From positions 48,413 through 68,412 of the forward strand of contig JBNGIO010006231.1 of the NCBI GenBank assembly GCA_049999805.1: DNA of 20,000 nucleotides, written 5' to 3'. A model generated the notes under the pieces. It was not told where the DNA came from. It searched no databases and saw nothing but the letters and a program-made list of their open reading frames with translations. The stretch comes from Folioceros fuciformis. Lineage: Eukaryota. This document shows, piece after piece, positions 7,485 through 18,102 of the stretch (positions are counted from its first letter, which is position 1; every line of letters begins with the position of its first letter). The position numbers and the translations under genes were made by a program.

Positions 7485-9700
<2,216 letters not shown>

Positions 9701-9893: not shown

Positions 9894-11079
9894 TTAGACA
9901 AAATCTACTCTGTCTTTCTCGGCTAATTTCCTCACAGCAGAGTATCTCACAATGTGCAAGTCATCAGGCGTCATGTCTACCGTCTCGTCTCCCCTGCAGA
10001 AGATCACATGTCCAAAGTCATGGCACCCATGTCATGTCTTTCACGCAAGGCCAGCTAACAGCAACAAAAGCGGCACGCTGTGTCTTACTTCTCATCCAGC
10101 TGGATGGACCCGATGTTGTCTTTACTCCGGCAGAACACATAGGTGTCCAGCTTTGGAGTGGGCACTGAAGTACAAGTTAAGCAGCAAGACAAAGAGAATG
10201 CCAAAGCAAAACTAGTACGACGGCAATCACAAGCGTTGATGCGGATACTCATGTCGACTTCTGCGTTGGAGTCCACCTGCCTGAGCATGCTCCTATATCC
10301 CTCTGGTAATCTGTTCAAAACCGAATAGTGCAAGTGCTTCTCGAGAACGTCACTGTACCTGCCACCGACGTGCACAGTGGTCACATGAACATCACAGCAT
10401 GATGCTTCCACCACAGGATCCCGTGAACGTGCCTGAACTTGGAAACTTCAAGCTCACCACAATGCAACATTGAACGCTTCGACCTGTGGTTCTGCGAGGT
10501 GATGCTCACCTTTCCGCATACCGCTTCTCTTCTGCCGACAGCCTATCGAAGGTCTCTGGACTACTTCCAACGTACAGCACATGTTTCTCAATCTGCAGGC
10601 GAAGAACAAGGCTAAGAAGGAAGTGAGCGGAGACGCAAATTTCTCACAAGGCTTGGCAGGGCAGGGCAAGGGCAAACAAGCGTACCTTTGAAAGCCGGGT
10701 ACGCAGATATGATCTGAGCAGAAACTGGATCCTGTTCAGATCCATGCGGTACATGGACAGAACCAGCTCCTGAGTACCTTCTCCCTCCAATTCCATTATA
10801 CTCCGCTCCTGCGCACCAACAAGGACTAACTCCCAGCCAACGCGGCTTCTTTTCCAGAACCAACGGGACAGAAATAGAACCGCGCAGGATGCAAGGGCGT
10901 ACCACGAGCTCAATTCGCTCCCGAATCCGCTGGACAAGCGGAGTTCGGACGGGCAAAATTTCAGGTGCCACCTTCTCGTTGCGCCACACTGCATTGAGCA
11001 GTTCCGCATCACTGCGGCCATCCCCGAACTCTGTATCGTCCCAATCTCCTGCCGTGGATGCTCCTGGGCTCTGGTCCAT
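9894..11079 (-). CDS. SLD5: DNA replication GINS complex subunit SLD5 (GINS4), 6 exons
   Basis: DAELLNAVWRNEKVAPEILP, MYRMDLNRIQFLLRSYLRTRLSKIEKH, RLSAEEKRYA, PTPKLDTYVFCRSK and DDLHIVRYSAVRKLAEKDRVDFV*; exons join in frame via GT-AG introns. Confidence 0.93.
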
Positions 11080-11239
11080 AGTGGGAGTCCGGCAGACGGC
11101 GCAGTCAGACTAGGATAGCTGCGACCGCGAATGCATTCAAATCTGTGACGGAAGGAATCGGGGTGTGAAATCGCAGCCTGATTAGGGTCCGAAGGAGATC
11201 GAAACAAACAACGTTGAAGCCAACGCAGTAGTGACGCGC
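11080..11239. promoter_or_regulatory. Short divergent promoter region, SLD5 / PPR-DYW
   Basis: 160 bp separate ATG 11079 (-) from the proposed PPR ATG 11240 (+). This depends on the inferred PPR first exon. Confidence 0.5.
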
Positions 11240-14176
11240 ATGACGAGGAGAATGAAGAGAAGTGGTGGGTTGGGCTGGCGTCCGCTTCTGTCCTGCCTAG
11301 TTGTGGGCAGCGAGCACACTGGAAGCAGAGGTTTGGAGGAATGTTGCAGGTATTTGTCGTATTTCCAGGTCGCAGTGGAGCGACCTGGATTCGCTGCAGA
11401 CCCACTGCAGTTCTGGGACAAGAGGTTGAACAAGGTAATTCATGTCACAGATTGGTGCCTTAAGCATGGCTACGAGGTAGATGTTGTTGGGGCGTTTAAT
11501 TGTTGCAATTTGCAGAAAATCCTGAACTCTTCGGACTCCCTGCACAGCGTGACGAGGAACGCGCTGCGGGTTCAGGTGCAGCCCTCCTGGGTCGAGGAAC
11601 GTGGACAAGGATTACAGGCTGGGATTCCGGTTAGAGAACCTGGGAGGTCTGGTCTTGAACTTTGGATCATTCGGTAGGGTCTGGCAGGCTTGGAATGAGA
11701 GCATTCACACTCCTGCCCGTTTTGCAGGATAAGAACCCTGGATGGAGGGCCTCTTGATGTTGGACTCTGGACGAAAATATGTGAGGAGGGAAAGCTCTGT
11801 GAGGCAGTCCAGGTCTTGCACATCTTCGCGCAGGGTGGGTCGTATGTTGCAGGATCGCTCTTGTATCATGTCCTTAAGGGTTGCATTTCGAGGAAAGACT
11901 TGGTCGTTGGCAAACGTGTTCATGATCTTACTGTTGCAATCGGGTATGAGTCAAACGTGTTTCTGGCGAACCATCTGATCCGCATGTATGCTTCTCATGG
12001 GAGACTCCAGGAAGCAATGCAGGTGTTCAGCAAGCTTGCTGCGCCAGATTCGTTTATGTGGGATTCCATCATCTGGGCGCATGCTGATCGTCAGCAGCCT
12101 GCACAGGCTTTAAGTTTGTATCAACGGATGCTAGAGTCCGCGGTGAAGCCGAGTAACTATACATTTGTGGCGGTGCTGAAAGCTTGTGCTGGTGCAAAGG
12201 ATTTGGCGTTTGGCAAGCGAGTTCATGCAGATGTTCTCAAGAGTGCTGAGGAGCCAGACAGACTTGTTTGCAACTCTTTGGTGGACATGTACGCCAAGTG
12301 TGGAAGCTTGAAGAAAGCGCGGGAAGTGTTTGACACGTTGTCCACAAAAGATGTGGTGACATGGAATACCATGTTTGGAGGGTATGCTCAGCATGGTTTT
12401 GGTCACGAAGCTCTCATGCTTTACAGCGAAGGGATGTCTCGGAAGTCCTTCACTCCGGATAGTGTTACATTTGTGTGTCTCCTCAAAGCGTGCGCCATCA
12501 TTGGAGCTCTATGTGAGGGCAAACAGCTCCATCGTGAACTTCAGAAAGCAGGCTTGGAGGCTGACGTGGTGGTTGGAAGCAGCCTTGTAGATATGTATGC
12601 GAAGTGTGGCAGCTTACCTGATGCTCGTGACGTTTTTGACGGAATGTCTTCAAAGAATGTGGTGACTTGGACTTCTATGATTTCAGGATATGCTCAGAAT
12701 GGTCTAGGTCACGAAGCTCTTACCCTTTACAAAGGTATGCAACAGGAAGGCGTCACCCCAGCAAACCAAGTTACTTTTGTTTGCCTACTAAACGCTTGTG
12801 CCAGTATCGGAGCTCTAGCTGAGGGGAAGGAGCTTCATTTCCAGATTCAAGGAAGAGGTCTGGAGTCTGATGTGGTTGTCGGCAGCTGCCTGGTGGACAT
12901 GTATGCAAAATGCGGTGACATAGAAGAAGCAAAACGAGTGTTTGATGGATTGCACTCCAAAAACGTGGTCACCTGGACTGCCATGATCACTGCGTATTCT
13001 CATGGTGGGCTTGTTCAAGAGGCCCTCATGCTTTATGAAAGTATGCAAAAAGAGGGCATTACTCCCGCAGACTCATTTACATTTGTCTGCCTGCTGAAAG
13101 CATGTGCCAGTGTCGGAGCATTGCAACAAGGAAGGGAACTTCATTCTCAAATAGAAGAAAGGGGCCTCGAAGCTGACATGGTCATTGGCAACAGCCTGGT
13201 AGACATGTATGCAAAATGTGGGAATTTGGGCAGTGCCCGTCGAGTGCTTGACAGATTGCCCAGACCCGATGTCGTGACATGGACTGCTTTGTTGAATGGG
13301 TACGCCCAACAGAACGACAGCCAAATGGCAAGGCAGTGCTTTCAAGAGATGCTACAGCATGGGGTTGAACCAGACCATGCTACCTTCACCTGCCTACTGG
13401 TGGCCTGCAGCCACGAGGGTCTCGTGAATGAGGGACAGCAGTATTTCAAGATGATGAAGGAAGATTATGGCATCACACCCAATTTATATCACTACAACTG
13501 CATGGTTGATCTTCTTGGACGGTGTGGCCACCTAGCTGACGCAGAGCTTATGTTGCAAACCATGCCATTTGATGGCGACGAGGTCGGCTGGACATCCTTG
13601 CTTACGGCCTGCAAAACACATGGTGATGTAGACCGTGGAAGGCGATGCTTCGACCGTCTCATCCAGTTGCAACCCCAAAACTCAGCCGCGTACATACTTC
13701 TGACGGATTTGTACTCCAGTGCTGGAAGGTGGAGGGATGTAAGCAAAATAGAACACTTGCGAAGATCGGCAGGTGCTAGCAAGATGCCTGCAAAGGCTTG
13801 GATTGAGGTGGACAGCAAGGTGCATTCCTTCAGCGTGGGCGAAGAAAGGGCTGACATCTCCTCGAAACTGAGGAGTGTGAATCTCCTGCTGAACCAGGAA
13901 GCAGAACTCAGCAAGCCATCCATGAAGCTAGCATCTGAGAAAGAACTGGAGGATTCATTGTGCGGACATGCTGAGAAACTTGCTCTGGCATATGGTCTCC
14001 TGAACACTCCAGACGGCACAACTTTACGTGTCACTAAGAACCTTCGGATGTGTGATGACTGTCACACTGGCACCAAAGTGATATCCAGAATTGAGCAGCG
14101 AGAGATCATAGTCAGAGATGCACACCGGCTTCACCACTTTGTGGATGGATTTTGTTCTTGTGGAGATCGCCATTAG
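11240..14176 (+). CDS. PLS-class pentatricopeptide repeat protein with E1-E2 and a variant DYW (DYW:KP, DRH-ending) domain; putative organellar RNA editing factor
   Basis: The long exon (about 11728-14176) encodes about 17 P/L/S motifs (e.g. SLVDMYAKCG, VVTWT, TFVCLLKAC), E1/E2, then KMPAKAWIEV..HAEKLA..KNLRMCDDCH..CSCGDRH*. The upstream same-frame ORF (ATG 11240 or 11252, basic targeting-peptide-like) joins by a 54-nt GT-AG intron 11674-11727 that removes two stops. A further in-frame intron at 11435-11515 is possible. The 5' end is less certain. Confidence 0.93.
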
Positions 14177-14263
14177 TTTGTCTCTTTTAAGAGACGTGTG
14201 AATAACGTGATTTTGGTGAAAGCCTTCGTCCGGATTCCTTCCAACTTCCCCCTTTTCACGGCT

Positions 14264-14932
14264 ATGGCTGCCTTACAGTGCCTCCATCTTCAGGTTGCGG
14301 CGCCTGCAACGCACCCGCGGCGATATGGCCCTGCGTTGGAGCGACCAGCGGTGGCGGCGACTACCTCGGGAAAGCTTTCATGGACGTCGGCAATGCAGGC
14401 ATGCCCTCTGGTGAAATCGCTGGAGTATCGGCAAGCTCGGGCCATCCAGGTTTGTAGCTGCTCCCTTATTCCCGAGGGTTTGGCCTCGAGAGCGAGCCTC
14501 TTTGTTTGACGTCCGGAGAACCGTGTGCAGGCCCCGTTCACGGTCCATGCCGCCTGGACCAGGCGCTCCAAGGGAGACCAGAGCGCTCCGAGTAAGAAGA
14601 GGTCGTGGGGTCAGCGTGCAGACAAGTACATGAAGCCCTTCATGCTGGACGTGTACATCTCGAAGAAGTACGTGAACGCCAAGGTCACTCACAGAGTAAC
14701 GGGCAGGGTGGTGTCCGTGGCTACAAGCAACGCAAGGGACATGAGAGAATCTCTGCGCTCCCTTTCGGATGACCACGCCTGTAAGGTCATCTCCAGACTC
14801 CTCGCTGAGCGGACAAAAGAAGCAGACGTTTACAGTGTCAAATTCGAGCTTCGGAAGAACGAGAAATTTGAAGGCAAGCTGGCACTGGTAGTGAACACTG
14901 TGGCAGAGGAGGGGATAACGGTCATGGTGTAA
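14264..14932 (+). CDS. Organellar ribosomal protein uL18-like (L18p/L5e family), probably plastid-targeted, 2 exons
   Basis: Exon 14264-14449 is transit-peptide-like (MAALQCLHLQVAAPA...), followed by intron 14450-14530. Exon 14531-14932 encodes AWTRRS..SWGQRADKYMKPFMLDVYISKKYVNAKVTHRVTGRVVSVATSN..LLAERTKEADV..FEGKL, typical of plant uL18-like paralogs. Confidence 0.85.
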
Positions 14933-16270
14933 ACACACCTGGGAGAGCAGCACTGGCTGAATGCAATCCTGCACGGTCTAAGGTTTGGGCATTCATGCAA
15001 CGCCTTCCAGGTGCACCAACCTTCCTTCTACTGTCTCTGTCTGTCTCACGCTGACTTCCGCTGAAGCAAGGACTCACAGGTTTGCATAAACCACGCAGGT
15101 GAAGGTGCAGCAAGCTCACAAGGCAGTCGGTTGTGCTGTTTGCTCGGCAGCAGTTGGTGCTTGTGATTGTCGTGAGGGCTGGGAACAGATGCTTGAATGT
15201 GTACGCCTATTTGCATGATTTGGTGTGTAAGTTGTAAATCCTTAGGAAATAACGATCCCACAACCACCCAAAACGTTGCACAGGTGACGTGTTTCGAATA
15301 TCCTTGTGTAACTTCTCTTACGAAATTTCGAGTCCACAAGTCCTGTTGACAATCGACCATCTCAGTTTTCAGCGATGCTCATTCTCTTGAGGCTGTCCTT
15401 CGCAATATTATCCTCTCTTGAGGTTCCCTAGCCTGGTTTCCTTGTCATTTTCGCTATGAAAGAGATCTTGAACTGGGTCGCTGAAAGTCGCCCTGCATCT
15501 ACACATCACCCATCTCCAGAGAGTTCTCGAGAGCTGCTCGGTGAAATCCCGGGTGGTATGTTCAGGTTGCTTAGGTGAGAATCTACGATGGCTGACTATT
15601 TACTTTCGAGTGTTTGAAAGGAGATTCTTACAACAGGCACCAGTCGCGCCTCGAGGCCCCATCCTCATCACATCGAAGAATCTCACCAAGCGAGCTACCT
15701 GAAGACGACGTTCAGCCGTCATAGAGGAACACATGTATGCCTCCCGTTATCGAGGATTACTGTGTCATTTTCAGGGCTGTTTTATTATTTTCGGATCTGA
15801 TTTGAATGTGTTTGCCCTTATCTCTTGTGACCTGTCGTTGACGAGGACATTCGTCTACGGAGTTAGTGAGCCCCTCGTGGAAACACCTCTCTAGCGCAGG
15901 TCATGGTACCGGGAGATAGAAGAGAGCACGGATACAAATCTCCTTCTACTCTGCGTTCATGCAGGCCAGTGACCTACCTTTGTACTGGGTGTGTCATTCT
16001 ACTTGAACGTGGTAGGTTGCAGATAACTTCTTCTACATATTTTAGTCATAATATCGGAAACGCATTTATGGGAAGCTATGTTTTGTCACAAAGTGAGCAT
16101 GTTTTGTGCTTTTCTCAAAGTCCTTATAAAACCATAGCCCCATAGTCATGGATCTTCATTGCATGGTAGGTCAACTTTTGAGGAGTGGTTCCATTGCATC
16201 TCTTTGTTGCCCAAAGGATTGGTAACCATATTTTATGCGGATCTATAATGATATGCTCCAATAAGGTCTC

Positions 16271-16446
16271 TTCGAATAGAGTATATTACAACCACATTAA
16301 CTATAGACACCAAGCCACCTAGAGAAACCTTGTAGAGCCAAGTGTCTTGCACCCTTTTGAATAGAGCAAGTTACAACCACATTAACAATAGACACCAAGC
16401 CACCTAGAGAAACCTTGTAGAGCCAAGTGTCTTGCACCCTTTTGAA
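16271..16446. repeat. Tandem duplication, 85-bp unit x2
   Basis: ttacaaccacattaac.atagacaccaagccacctagagaaaccttgtagagccaagtgtcttgcacccttttgaa starts at 16286 and again at 16371. Confidence 0.9.
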
Positions 16447-16710
16447 GGAAAGATCCCACTTGATACGTCTAACCCCACCTAATGTTGATAGCAAACCCTT
16501 GCCCTTTCCTCGGCTAGTATACACTAGTTGCATGTTTGTGAACTTAAGTACAGTAATAAAAGGAGCGTTCACCTCACAATACTCTTATTATGATCCCTTT
16601 TTGTTGATGAAAACTTAAGAACTAGTTAAGGTTCAGCATAGCTAGCTCCTATTGTGGATTGGTGGTGGCTTGCCAACAACTTCATTCCCATTATCTTTCC
16701 TACATGTTTA

Positions 16711-16848
16711 ATGCGTACCTCAACTACTTGCCTTATCTAGTGCGGCTTCCGCTTATTTGAGTGGTTCATGCGTACCTCAACTACTTGGCCTATTTGAGTG
16801 TGGCTTCATTCTCCTACGTTATGCACATCTCAACTACTTGGCTTATTT
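16711..16848. repeat. Degenerate tandem repeat, about 53-57 bp x3
   Basis: Variants of atgcgtacctcaactacttg(g)c(c/t)tat start at 16711, 16768 and 16821. Confidence 0.8.
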
Positions 16849-17093
16849 TTTAGGGCAACTTCGTTCTAACTTGGGAAAGGATGTAGGTTCTTAGTTCTTG
16901 GTTCAACCTAGCATCCTAGCTTTTCAAATCCAGAAGCCACATTCTCTTACATGATGAGGTTTTTGTCTTGGGTTGGTTCAATCTTTGGCTTTGAGCTCTC
17001 CTCTTGCAACTATGGGGCCATTCAATTACGAGTGCAACAAATCTCCTATTCATCTTGCCCATTGCTTTGCTTGGTATAACATATCACCTTAAA

Positions 17094-17454
17094 ATGATGT
17101 CATGTTTTTGCTGGCCAAAAAGGTCACACTCTAAATGTTGTATGTTGTTGACAGCCAAGAAGGCCACACTCTAAATGATGCACACTCTAAATGATGTCAC
17201 GTTTTTGCCGGCCAAGAAGGCCACACTTTGAATGTTGTATGTTTTTTATGGCTAAGAGGGCCACACTTTGAATGATGTCATGGTTTTGCTGGCCAAGAAG
17301 ACCAAACTTTGAATGTTCTATGTTTTTTATGGCCTTCTTGTGACGCTATGTTTTCCACACTCTTAATGACGCTATGTTTTCTATGGCCAAGAAGGCCATA
17401 CTCTGAATGATGCACGCTCTGATTGACGTTATGTTTTCGCTCGCCAAGAAGGCC
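17094..17454. repeat. Minisatellite of alternating 41/40-bp units with a ggccaagaaggcc core
   Basis: Units start at 17094, 17135, 17191, 17232, 17272 and 17313, then decay. Consensus atg(a/t)tgt(c)atgttttt..(t)ggccaagaaggccacact(c/t)t(a/g)a. Confidence 0.88.
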
Positions 17455-17566
17455 CATTTTCTATCGTTCACAGAGTGCCCACATATTCTGCTTGACAAAG
17501 TTTCTTTCTGGGCTGGCCTTTTCGTCAACATGAGAGAGAATAGTTTTCCATCACTAACGCAGTCGT

Positions 17567-18102
17567 TATAGATTGATCCATAAGGATATAGATTGATCCA
17601 TAAGGATGTTGTGTTCAACTCCCCGGGTCGAGCATGGGCTAAGATTCACAAGTACACCCCTCTACATGTCAGACACATCTTTATCCCCCTAACTTATGGT
17701 AGTGTTAATTCAACAAAGGGTTTCCATTGCACTATGTTAGGCCTTGGCTCATGCCATATTCGTTCAGAGGATTACTATAGTGTAGTGGACCTTAGTGTAG
17801 TGGACCTTGGTTGATGTCATATTCGTTCTTTCAACAAAAGGTTTCTAGGTCTTCGTTTTTTTAGGTTTCACCCCTTAAGGACTAGTTGGTACAAGTTTCT
17901 AGGCTTGACCCTTAAGGGCTAGCTCTCGTGGCCTTGTCTCTAATAGTGGCTTGTCTCACCTATGTGTGTCAAGGTAGATGGTTTCCCATCTTGTTTTTCT
18001 CAAGTAATTACTAAGTCCTCAACTACATACTTATGGGATGTGGGCTGAGGTAGTAGGAGGGTTTCCCACTTGTTTTTCTCAAGTAGTTGCGAAGTCCTCA
18101 AC
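17567..18102. repeat. Cluster of short direct duplications in AT-rich, probably transposon-derived DNA
   Basis: tatagattgatccataagga x2 (17567-17606), tagtgtagtggacct x2 (about 17778-17807), and ggtttccca(t)cttgtttttctcaagta..aagtcctcaac x2 (about 17980 and 18060). Confidence 0.7.

Follow-up and report, generated by a model that had tools for sequence, protein, structure and literature searches.

A PPR gene of Folioceros fuciformis ending in a DYW:KP-type, DRH-subgroup domain: a candidate site-specific organellar U-to-C editing factor

A 20,000-nucleotide stretch of the Folioceros fuciformis assembly GCA_049999805.1 (contig JBNGIO010006231.1, positions 48,413 to 68,412 of the forward strand; hereafter the window, numbered from its first letter) contains one PPR gene, at 11699-14176 on the plus strand, whose product carries an array of PPR motifs followed by E1, E2 and a deaminase-fold domain of the DYW:KP type. 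The gene probably encodes a site-specific organellar U-to-C editing factor (probability about 0.6), with import, binding site and chemistry extrapolated from designer proteins. The protein would be imported into the plastid or the mitochondrion, where its 18 PPR motifs, together with E1 and E2, would align along one transcript at one motif per nucleotide and the P and S motifs, from -19 to -4, would recognise 5'-U n n U U n A A n A G n U G n U-3'. This would set the DYW:KP domain on a uridine 4 nucleotides downstream of the base bound by the S2 motif, which the domain would convert to C, with the chemistry of the designer KP domains, using a zinc site (HAE...CxxCH) and a conserved active-site lysine. 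What is observed, and what the proposal starts from, is the gene with its motif code, a C-terminal domain of KP/DRH character and the transcript-like contigs covering the gene. A prior in favour of this assignment is that Anthoceros agrestis has more U-to-C than C-to-U editing (PMC12548569).

The gene occupies a single stop-to-stop frame of 825 codons closed by the stop codon at 14174-14176. Pfam searches with the protein of this frame (P0001, the query in all comparisons below) returned PPR_2 at 1e-91, PPR at 5.9e-83, E_motif at 6.9e-15 (residues 602-664) and DYW_deaminase at 7.3e-34, and with the scores of the PPR families ranging from 1e-91 to 6e-47 the repeat array is well outside chance. 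Cutting the protein into motifs by numeric coordinates gives 18 contiguous PPR motifs, then E1, E2 and a DYW domain of 130 residues, and a second parse with hidden Markov models (HMMs) of the P, L, S, P2, L2, S2 and E1 motifs of this same protein places the same boundaries (Table 1). The motifs form triplets of 35/35/31 or 36/35/31 residues, ending in a P2-L2-S2 triplet of 35/36/32, which is the tandem arrangement of P, L and S motifs of about 35, 35-36 and 31-32 residues that defines the PLS class. S2 is followed, again as in this class, by E1 and E2, two 34-residue units at 13580-13783.

The published recognition code operates in P and S motifs only, where the fifth and last residues specify A (T/S+N), G (T/S+D), U (N+D), C (N+S) or Y (N+N); the terminal S2 lies opposite -4, L motifs stand outside the code and N-terminal motifs are often mismatched (PMC10482289). 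An earlier reading made from the sequence alone (the sequence-only reading) had listed such pairs for successive motifs between 11945 and 13580, had translated them into a target and had assumed a reverse, U-to-C, editor. All of the listed pairs (16 of 16) were recovered in the same order by the coordinates and by the HMM parser. The span is off by 12 bases at one end and 1 at the other, the first listed S motif starting at 11957 and S2 ending at 13579, and the array further includes a P motif at 11747-11851, an L motif at 11852-11956 and the E1 motif at 13580-13681. Its translation (T/S+N as A, TD as G, ND as U, S2 at -4) matches the published rule, the resulting motif is a correct application of it, and the assumption of a U-to-C editor agrees with a C-terminal domain of DYW:KP/DRH character. 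The derived target is 5'-UnnUUnAAnAGnUGnUnnn[U] with S2 at -4, that is, the series given above followed by n n n [U]-3'. In designer KP proteins L2, S2 and E1 lie opposite -5, -4 and -3, and position -2 favours a purine, position -1 a pyrimidine (PMC9478123). On this pattern the motif could be extended: E1 (T/N) would add A at -3, L2 (T/N) possibly A at -5, and the designer preferences R at -2 and Y at -1.

The sequence-only reading had also taken the near-universal presence of canonical pairs in the P and S motifs as suggesting a functional, specific factor. The count itself stands, with 10 of the 11 listed P and S motifs canonical, but it is no special sign of function. When all proteins were put through the same parser, excluding those that had fewer than five P/S motifs parsed or that lacked the HxE...CxxCH signature, 166 of 201 P/S pairs were canonical in 15 KP-like proteins (query included), 534 of 599 in 39 PG-like homologues and 10 of 12 in the query, so that canonical pairs are the family norm and are weak information by themselves. 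The derived motif has 11 specified bases, 10 of them upstream positions, and the chance probability of these ten positions is about 2-4e-6 if ND is read as U and rises to 3e-5 if it is read as Y. Taking assumed round numbers of 400 kb and 2000 documented sites, 0.2-1.2 (ND = U) or 6-9 (ND = Y) chance matches are expected over both strands of the former and 0.002-0.07 perfect chance matches among the latter. The Y version of the pattern has two chance matches in the nuclear window, both on the minus strand (reverse-complement positions 14487 and 17598), showing that the pattern alone is unspecific. The predicted target is sound as a hypothesis and less specific than had been implied; by the code it would be the real binding site of the protein.

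The C-terminal domain carries the DYW signature HxE(x)nCxxCH followed by a C-terminal H...CxC, with HAE, CDDCH, HHF and CSC all present, and it matches solved DYW domains in sequence (9kfx, 2.8e-35; 7o4e, 2.6e-32; 7w86, 7.2e-29). The first two homologue searches gave, with the query, 87 proteins bearing the deaminase signature, and these separate cleanly into two domain types. The PG type has a PGxSW box, HSE, mostly NLRVC (with I or M in a minority), a spacer of 67 residues from the box to HxE and a DYW end, while the KP type has a KPAxA-like box, HAE (rarely HVE or HCE), NLRMC, variable ends and a mostly shorter spacer, 60-64 where the box was correctly resolved. In the query the box is MPAKAW and the spacer 61 residues, with HAE, NLRMC and a DRH end. 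Published features of KP domains are the alanine of HAE, M92, a missing xHP and variable ends, and hornwort KP proteins fall into DRH and GRP subgroups named from their last three residues (PMC9478123, PMC11845758). The query has Ala in place of the Ser of HxE, where KP domains have Ala or Cys, and Met at the position of PG V95 (in TKNLRMC), a further mark of the KP type (PMC9478123). Since M is also found in some PG-type domains with HSE and a DYW-like end, it is not exclusive to KP. The equivalent of Lys88 of KP6 is the K at domain residue 85, with an offset of 3 in the numbering set by the alignment of M89 with M92; this lysine is also conserved in PG domains (PMC11845758) and so does not discriminate between the types. 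At 130 residues the domain is shorter than the 136-residue PG domain and lacks SHP after the box, in keeping with the missing xHP of KP domains (PMC9478123). The protein finishes in GDRH, as expected of the DRH subgroup.

Comparison with other proteins places the domain in the same group. A DRH end is present in 11 of the 44 KP-like domains sampled, among them the four best C-terminal matches. In a search with the C-terminal 198 residues unnamed proteins from assemblies lead at 61-66% identity, the best four all ending in DRH, and named fern and lycophyte KP proteins follow lower, at 54% identity or less. A quick-mode maximum-likelihood tree (IQ-TREE; 86 DYW domains, 137 columns, with the Shimodaira-Hasegawa-like approximate likelihood ratio test, SH-aLRT, as the only support measure) puts the query in a 17-row clade supported at SH-aLRT 98, the smallest starred clade that contains it. 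The KP label applies to fifteen of the rows; the crude labelling missed the remaining two, whose boxes are KP-like. By its sequence the C-terminal domain is of the DYW:KP type and belongs to the DRH subgroup, which by itself would make a hornwort the probable source of the window.

Contigs from four runs were compared with the window: X1 is a DNA run, X3 bears the same organism label as X1, and X5 and X12 come from organisms B and C. The joints 10592/10686, 10807/10902 and 14446/14528, each across a GT..AG intron, occur in contigs of X3 and X5 and in none of X1, and for this reason X3 and X5 are taken as RNA-derived. The gene is expressed in that transcript-like X3 contigs, RNA on this evidence, cover it; X3 records 19-21 cover 11800-14126 with 0 differences. 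Among the contig pieces and differences listed, to which the following counts refer, X5 records 24-27 fit 2003 nucleotides of coding sequence with 123 substitutions and 0 gaps, and the X5 indels (11203, 11205, 14178 and 14248) lie before the ATG at 11240 or past the stop. X5 record 28 spans the 3' end of the PPR gene into the downstream L18p-like gene, a bridging contig which indicates that synteny is conserved in organism B. In X12 the single gap, of 12 nucleotides, is in frame and falls within the variable spacer of the DYW domain; X12 cover is limited to 11632-14249, a limit from which no conclusion is drawn. The differences at 11968 and 12859 have some depth in the DNA run as well, or else stem from paralogous contigs. 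The pattern is suggestive of purifying selection on the PPR gene, its basis being the contig pieces listed and not a measurement.

Several points weigh against this assignment as a U-to-C editing factor. PMC11845758 gives U-to-C conversion for consensus-designed KP domains only and gives no natural KP protein as assayed or experimentally tied to a site; three of seven designer KP domains (KP2, KP3 and KP6) were active in this direction, the DRH-based KP1 not being among those named (PMC9478123); and KP6 catalysed C-to-U as well, in human cells (PMC11845758). In the query the lysine that gives the KP pair its name is replaced by methionine (M-P-A-K-A-W), with P and AxA kept and no G. The closest protein-database match is only 58% identical over its full length, with no close orthologue; among shorter proteins no near-identical orthologue fragment was found (best 56%). 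A protein pattern search for relatives in metagenome contigs gave 18 pattern matches, of which 0 were confirmed. The 5' end of the gene, dealt with below, adds two further difficulties. The 40 boxes resolved among the 44 KP-like domains have KP in 24, MP in 3 (query included) and other pairs in 13, with AxA in 34, so that a literal KP is not universal in the clade.

Some of these points are also what would be expected of an editing factor that, for all its KP-type domain, works from C to U or in both directions. HxE...CxxCH, the deaminase signature, is kept in full, position 6 of the box is W as in the PGxSW of PG-type domains, and the two-way editing of KP6 comes with the observation that single substitutions switch direction (PMC11845758), to which the missing K and the absence of KP1 from the U-to-C-active designs can be added. 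Such activity would nevertheless have to be reconciled with HAE instead of HSE, M instead of V before CxxCH, no xHP and no DYW end, with the placement of the query inside the KP clade, and with the presence of the Lys88 equivalent that is required for U-to-C, although this residue is conserved in PG domains too. A C-to-U or two-way editor would seem distinctly unlikely.

The two difficulties at the 5' end concern whether the gene makes a protein. No ATG stands in the PPR frame ahead of residue 96 (stop-to-stop numbering), so that a complete open reading frame (ORF) requires removal of the 54-nucleotide segment 11674-11727 as an intron, and X3 record 18, from the same organism, reads unspliced through this segment to 11755. 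The same record sets the 3' end of exon 1, fitting 10902-11432 and then 11514-11755. The gene probably consists of three exons. With 11674-11727 removed the frame from the ATG at 11240 is fused exactly to the PPR frame, giving 933 codons with one stop, at the end; with the segment kept and intron 1 removed, the same frame terminates at the TAG at 11675-11677. The ATG at 11240 is the sole one able to start a complete reading frame and is the presumed translation start, and the exon structure beyond intron 1 would be as given in Table 1. The three-exon model alone includes an N-terminal extension of 117 residues. In favour of the putative second intron are the frame match, its canonical GT..AG ends and pyrimidine tract, and contigs of X5 and X12 that first fit at 11732, just past its acceptor; against it, besides the unspliced X3 contig, counts its length, below that of the other four introns at the locus (81-94 nucleotides). 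Use of 'ttttgcag' at 11720-11727 as the acceptor for a far-upstream exon was considered and dropped in favour of the local 54-nucleotide intron because exon 2 extends in frame to 11673; ATG 11695 was dropped as a start, its frame ending after 20 codons.

The same observations could be taken to mean that the gene is a transcribed non-functional copy, a young pseudogene among many PLS genes, which makes no protein because its PPR frame has no start codon. The lack of an in-frame ATG upstream of the array, the TAG met when intron 1 alone is removed and the same-organism contig that keeps the 54 nucleotides all point that way, as does the M for K in the box; canonical code pairs, being the family norm, are no proof of function, and with PPR genes at about 7.9% of the predicted genes of Anthoceros angustus (PMC7027989) redundancy is plausible. 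Against this stand the 825 open codons, the catalytic and zinc residues, all of which are intact, and the canonical signals and exact frame restoration at 11674-11727, just after whose acceptor the fit of the organism B and C contigs starts. The listed pieces of the syntenic copy in organism B are free of gaps over 2003 fitted nucleotides, the listed indels lying outside the frame, and the MP box recurs in the KP clade. A pseudogene is thus considered fairly unlikely. The protein might instead bind RNA without editing it, stabilising or processing a transcript or lending specificity to a catalytic partner. PPR arrays bind RNA unaided, PMC9478123 demonstrates no activity for a DRH-type domain, and canonical S2 pairs that match -4 are described as the exception among editing factors (PMC10482289), which implies that arrays are not always simple site readers. 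The E1-E2-DYW module is, on the other hand, complete, with HAE, CxxCH, the second set of zinc residues and the active-site lysine intact, and it is free of frameshifts in the listed pieces of the related organisms, as expected for a catalytic editing factor; a role in binding alone would seem very improbable. A site-specific U-to-C editing factor remains the preferred assignment.

Table 1. Exons, introns and protein motifs of the PPR gene, in window coordinates. Code pairs are fifth/last residues; negative numbers are positions relative to the predicted edited base.
Feature	Positions	Strand	Code pair and predicted base, or basis
Putative exon 1, N-terminal extension	11240..11434	+	ATG 11240 in frame 11186..11677; donor AAG|GTAAT
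Intron 1, 81 nt, GT..AG	11435..11515	+	Joined across by X3 record 18 (RNA-like, same organism); splice signals
Putative exon 2	11516..11673	+	Carries on ATG frame; 3' end placed from donor CG|GTAGGG
Putative intron 2, 54 nt, GT..AG	11674..11727	+	Frame restoration and splice signals
Exon 3: PPR array, E1, E2, DYW:KP domain, stop	11728..14176	+	Open frame, Pfam, X3 records 19-21
Degenerate N-terminal P-like motif	11747..11851	+	V/A (coordinates) or T/A (HMM register), opposite -21
L motif	11852..11956	+	Y/N, opposite -20
S motif	11957..12049	+	N/D, predicted U at -19
P motif	12050..12154	+	D/S, non-canonical, -18 not readable
L motif	12155..12259	+	V/D, -17
S motif	12260..12352	+	N/D, predicted U at -16
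P motif (36 aa)	12353..12460	+	N/D, predicted U at -15
L motif	12461..12565	+	V/D, -14
S motif	12566..12658	+	S/N, predicted A at -13
P motif (36 aa)	12659..12766	+	T/N, predicted A at -12
L motif	12767..12871	+	V/D, -11
S motif	12872..12964	+	S/N, predicted A at -10
P motif (36 aa)	12965..13072	+	T/D, predicted G at -9
L motif	13073..13177	+	V/D, -8
S motif	13178..13270	+	N/D, predicted U at -7
P2 motif	13271..13375	+	T/D, predicted G at -6
L2 motif (36 aa)	13376..13483	+	T/N, -5, possibly A; L2 behaviour varied among designer KP proteins (PMC9478123)
S2 motif (32 aa)	13484..13579	+	N/D, predicted U at -4
E1 motif (34 aa)	13580..13681	+	T/N, opposite -3; A if the code is obeyed, as in designer KP proteins
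E2 motif (34 aa)	13682..13783	+	
DYW:KP-type deaminase-fold domain, 130 aa	13784..14173	+	MPAKAW, HAE, TKNLRMC, CDDCH, DRH end

Three segments of the gene, 12248-12401, 12864-13017 and 13172-13325, which code for the conserved core of the S motif, show very high summed contig word depth in all four runs, the top values being 9829 in X1 and 102813 in X12. Many loose-ended contigs derive from paralogous PLS genes, and any read-based analysis of the gene consequently needs a guard against cross-mapping. The PPR gene is flanked in the window by spliced nuclear genes of an ordinary kind. Right after its stop, at 14200-15000 on the plus strand, lies a spliced gene whose ORF at 14510-14932 matches Ribosomal_L18p (3.7e-08); X3 and X5 contigs that start in the 3' end of the PPR gene at 14098 join 14446 to 14528 across its 81-nucleotide GT..AG intron. 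Head-to-head with the PPR gene, at 10400-11100 on the minus strand, is a gene with two introns (10592/10686 and 10807/10902, CT..AC on the plus strand), the first-exon ORF of which (10612-11079) has no Pfam match. X3 record 18 extends from this first exon into the 5' region of the PPR gene, so that the transcripts or untranslated regions of the two abut or overlap. Further upstream, at 7620-8740 on the plus strand, the Iso_dh family (isocitrate/isopropylmalate dehydrogenases) has matches in two open stretches (3.8e-27 and 1.1e-04), presumably exons of one gene. The GC content of the window is about 0.40-0.60, with 16001-18000 low at 0.40-0.42 against 0.48-0.60 elsewhere.

What the gene might mean for reverse editing can be put forward only tentatively, as a possibility that is itself unlikely. 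Its array may be unusually readable, with 10 of the 11 listed P and S motifs canonical and S2 among them, and it may pair with one U-to-C site. If the pairing were true, it would be the first natural factor-site pair for reverse editing. The MPAKAW box, with no K and a PG-like W, would then indicate that amination can do without the K of KP, or that DRH domains need a partner or work unlike the GRP and fern types, and either of these last would explain the inactive DRH-based designer. As an expressed natural gene of the DRH type whose code is mostly canonical, it is a reasonable candidate for factor-site pairing and also for asking whether the DRH subgroup catalyses at all.

The gene is a further member of a known and very large family, and reading its code is routine. 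Its closest likeness is to the hornwort DRH-subgroup PPR-DYW:KP proteins (PMC9478123), with which it shares the PLS array, E1, E2, the short PAxA/HAE/NLRMC domain without xHP and the DRH end; it clusters with DRH-ending proteins from public assemblies. It differs from them in the M for K of its box, the variant found in 3 of the 40 resolved boxes of the KP clade, query included. Its domain of 130 residues compares with KP domains of 132 and 133 residues aligned in PMC11845758. Identity to the nearest database protein is 66% over the C-terminal 198 residues and 58% over the full length, and the PPR code of the query differs from that of P0043, the nearest of the relatives read by eye. With the designer proteins KP1-KP7 (PMC9478123, PMC11845758) the query shares the order P2-L2-S2-E1-E2-DYW:KP, HAE and the equivalents of Lys88 and M92, and, as for the designer KP editors, the edit would be expected 4 nucleotides downstream of the base bound by S2, with E1 reading -3. 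Those proteins are consensus designs assayed in E. coli and human cells, whereas the query is a natural gene with a native array of 18 motifs and a predicted activity; the active designs named are KP2 and KP3, of the GRP type, and KP6, of the fern type, with the DRH-based KP1 not named among them (PMC9478123). With the DYW:PG C-to-U factors, such as moss PPR56 (PMC10482289) and Arabidopsis OTP86 (solved DYW domain 7o4e), it has in common the PLS-E1-E2-DYW architecture, HxE...CxxCH, the fifth/last code on P and S motifs and S2 opposite -4. The PG domains, which deaminate C, have PGxSW, HSE, mostly NLRVC, xHP, a spacer of 67 and a DYW end, in contrast to the MPAKAW, HAE, NLRMC, spacer of 61 and DRH end of the query.

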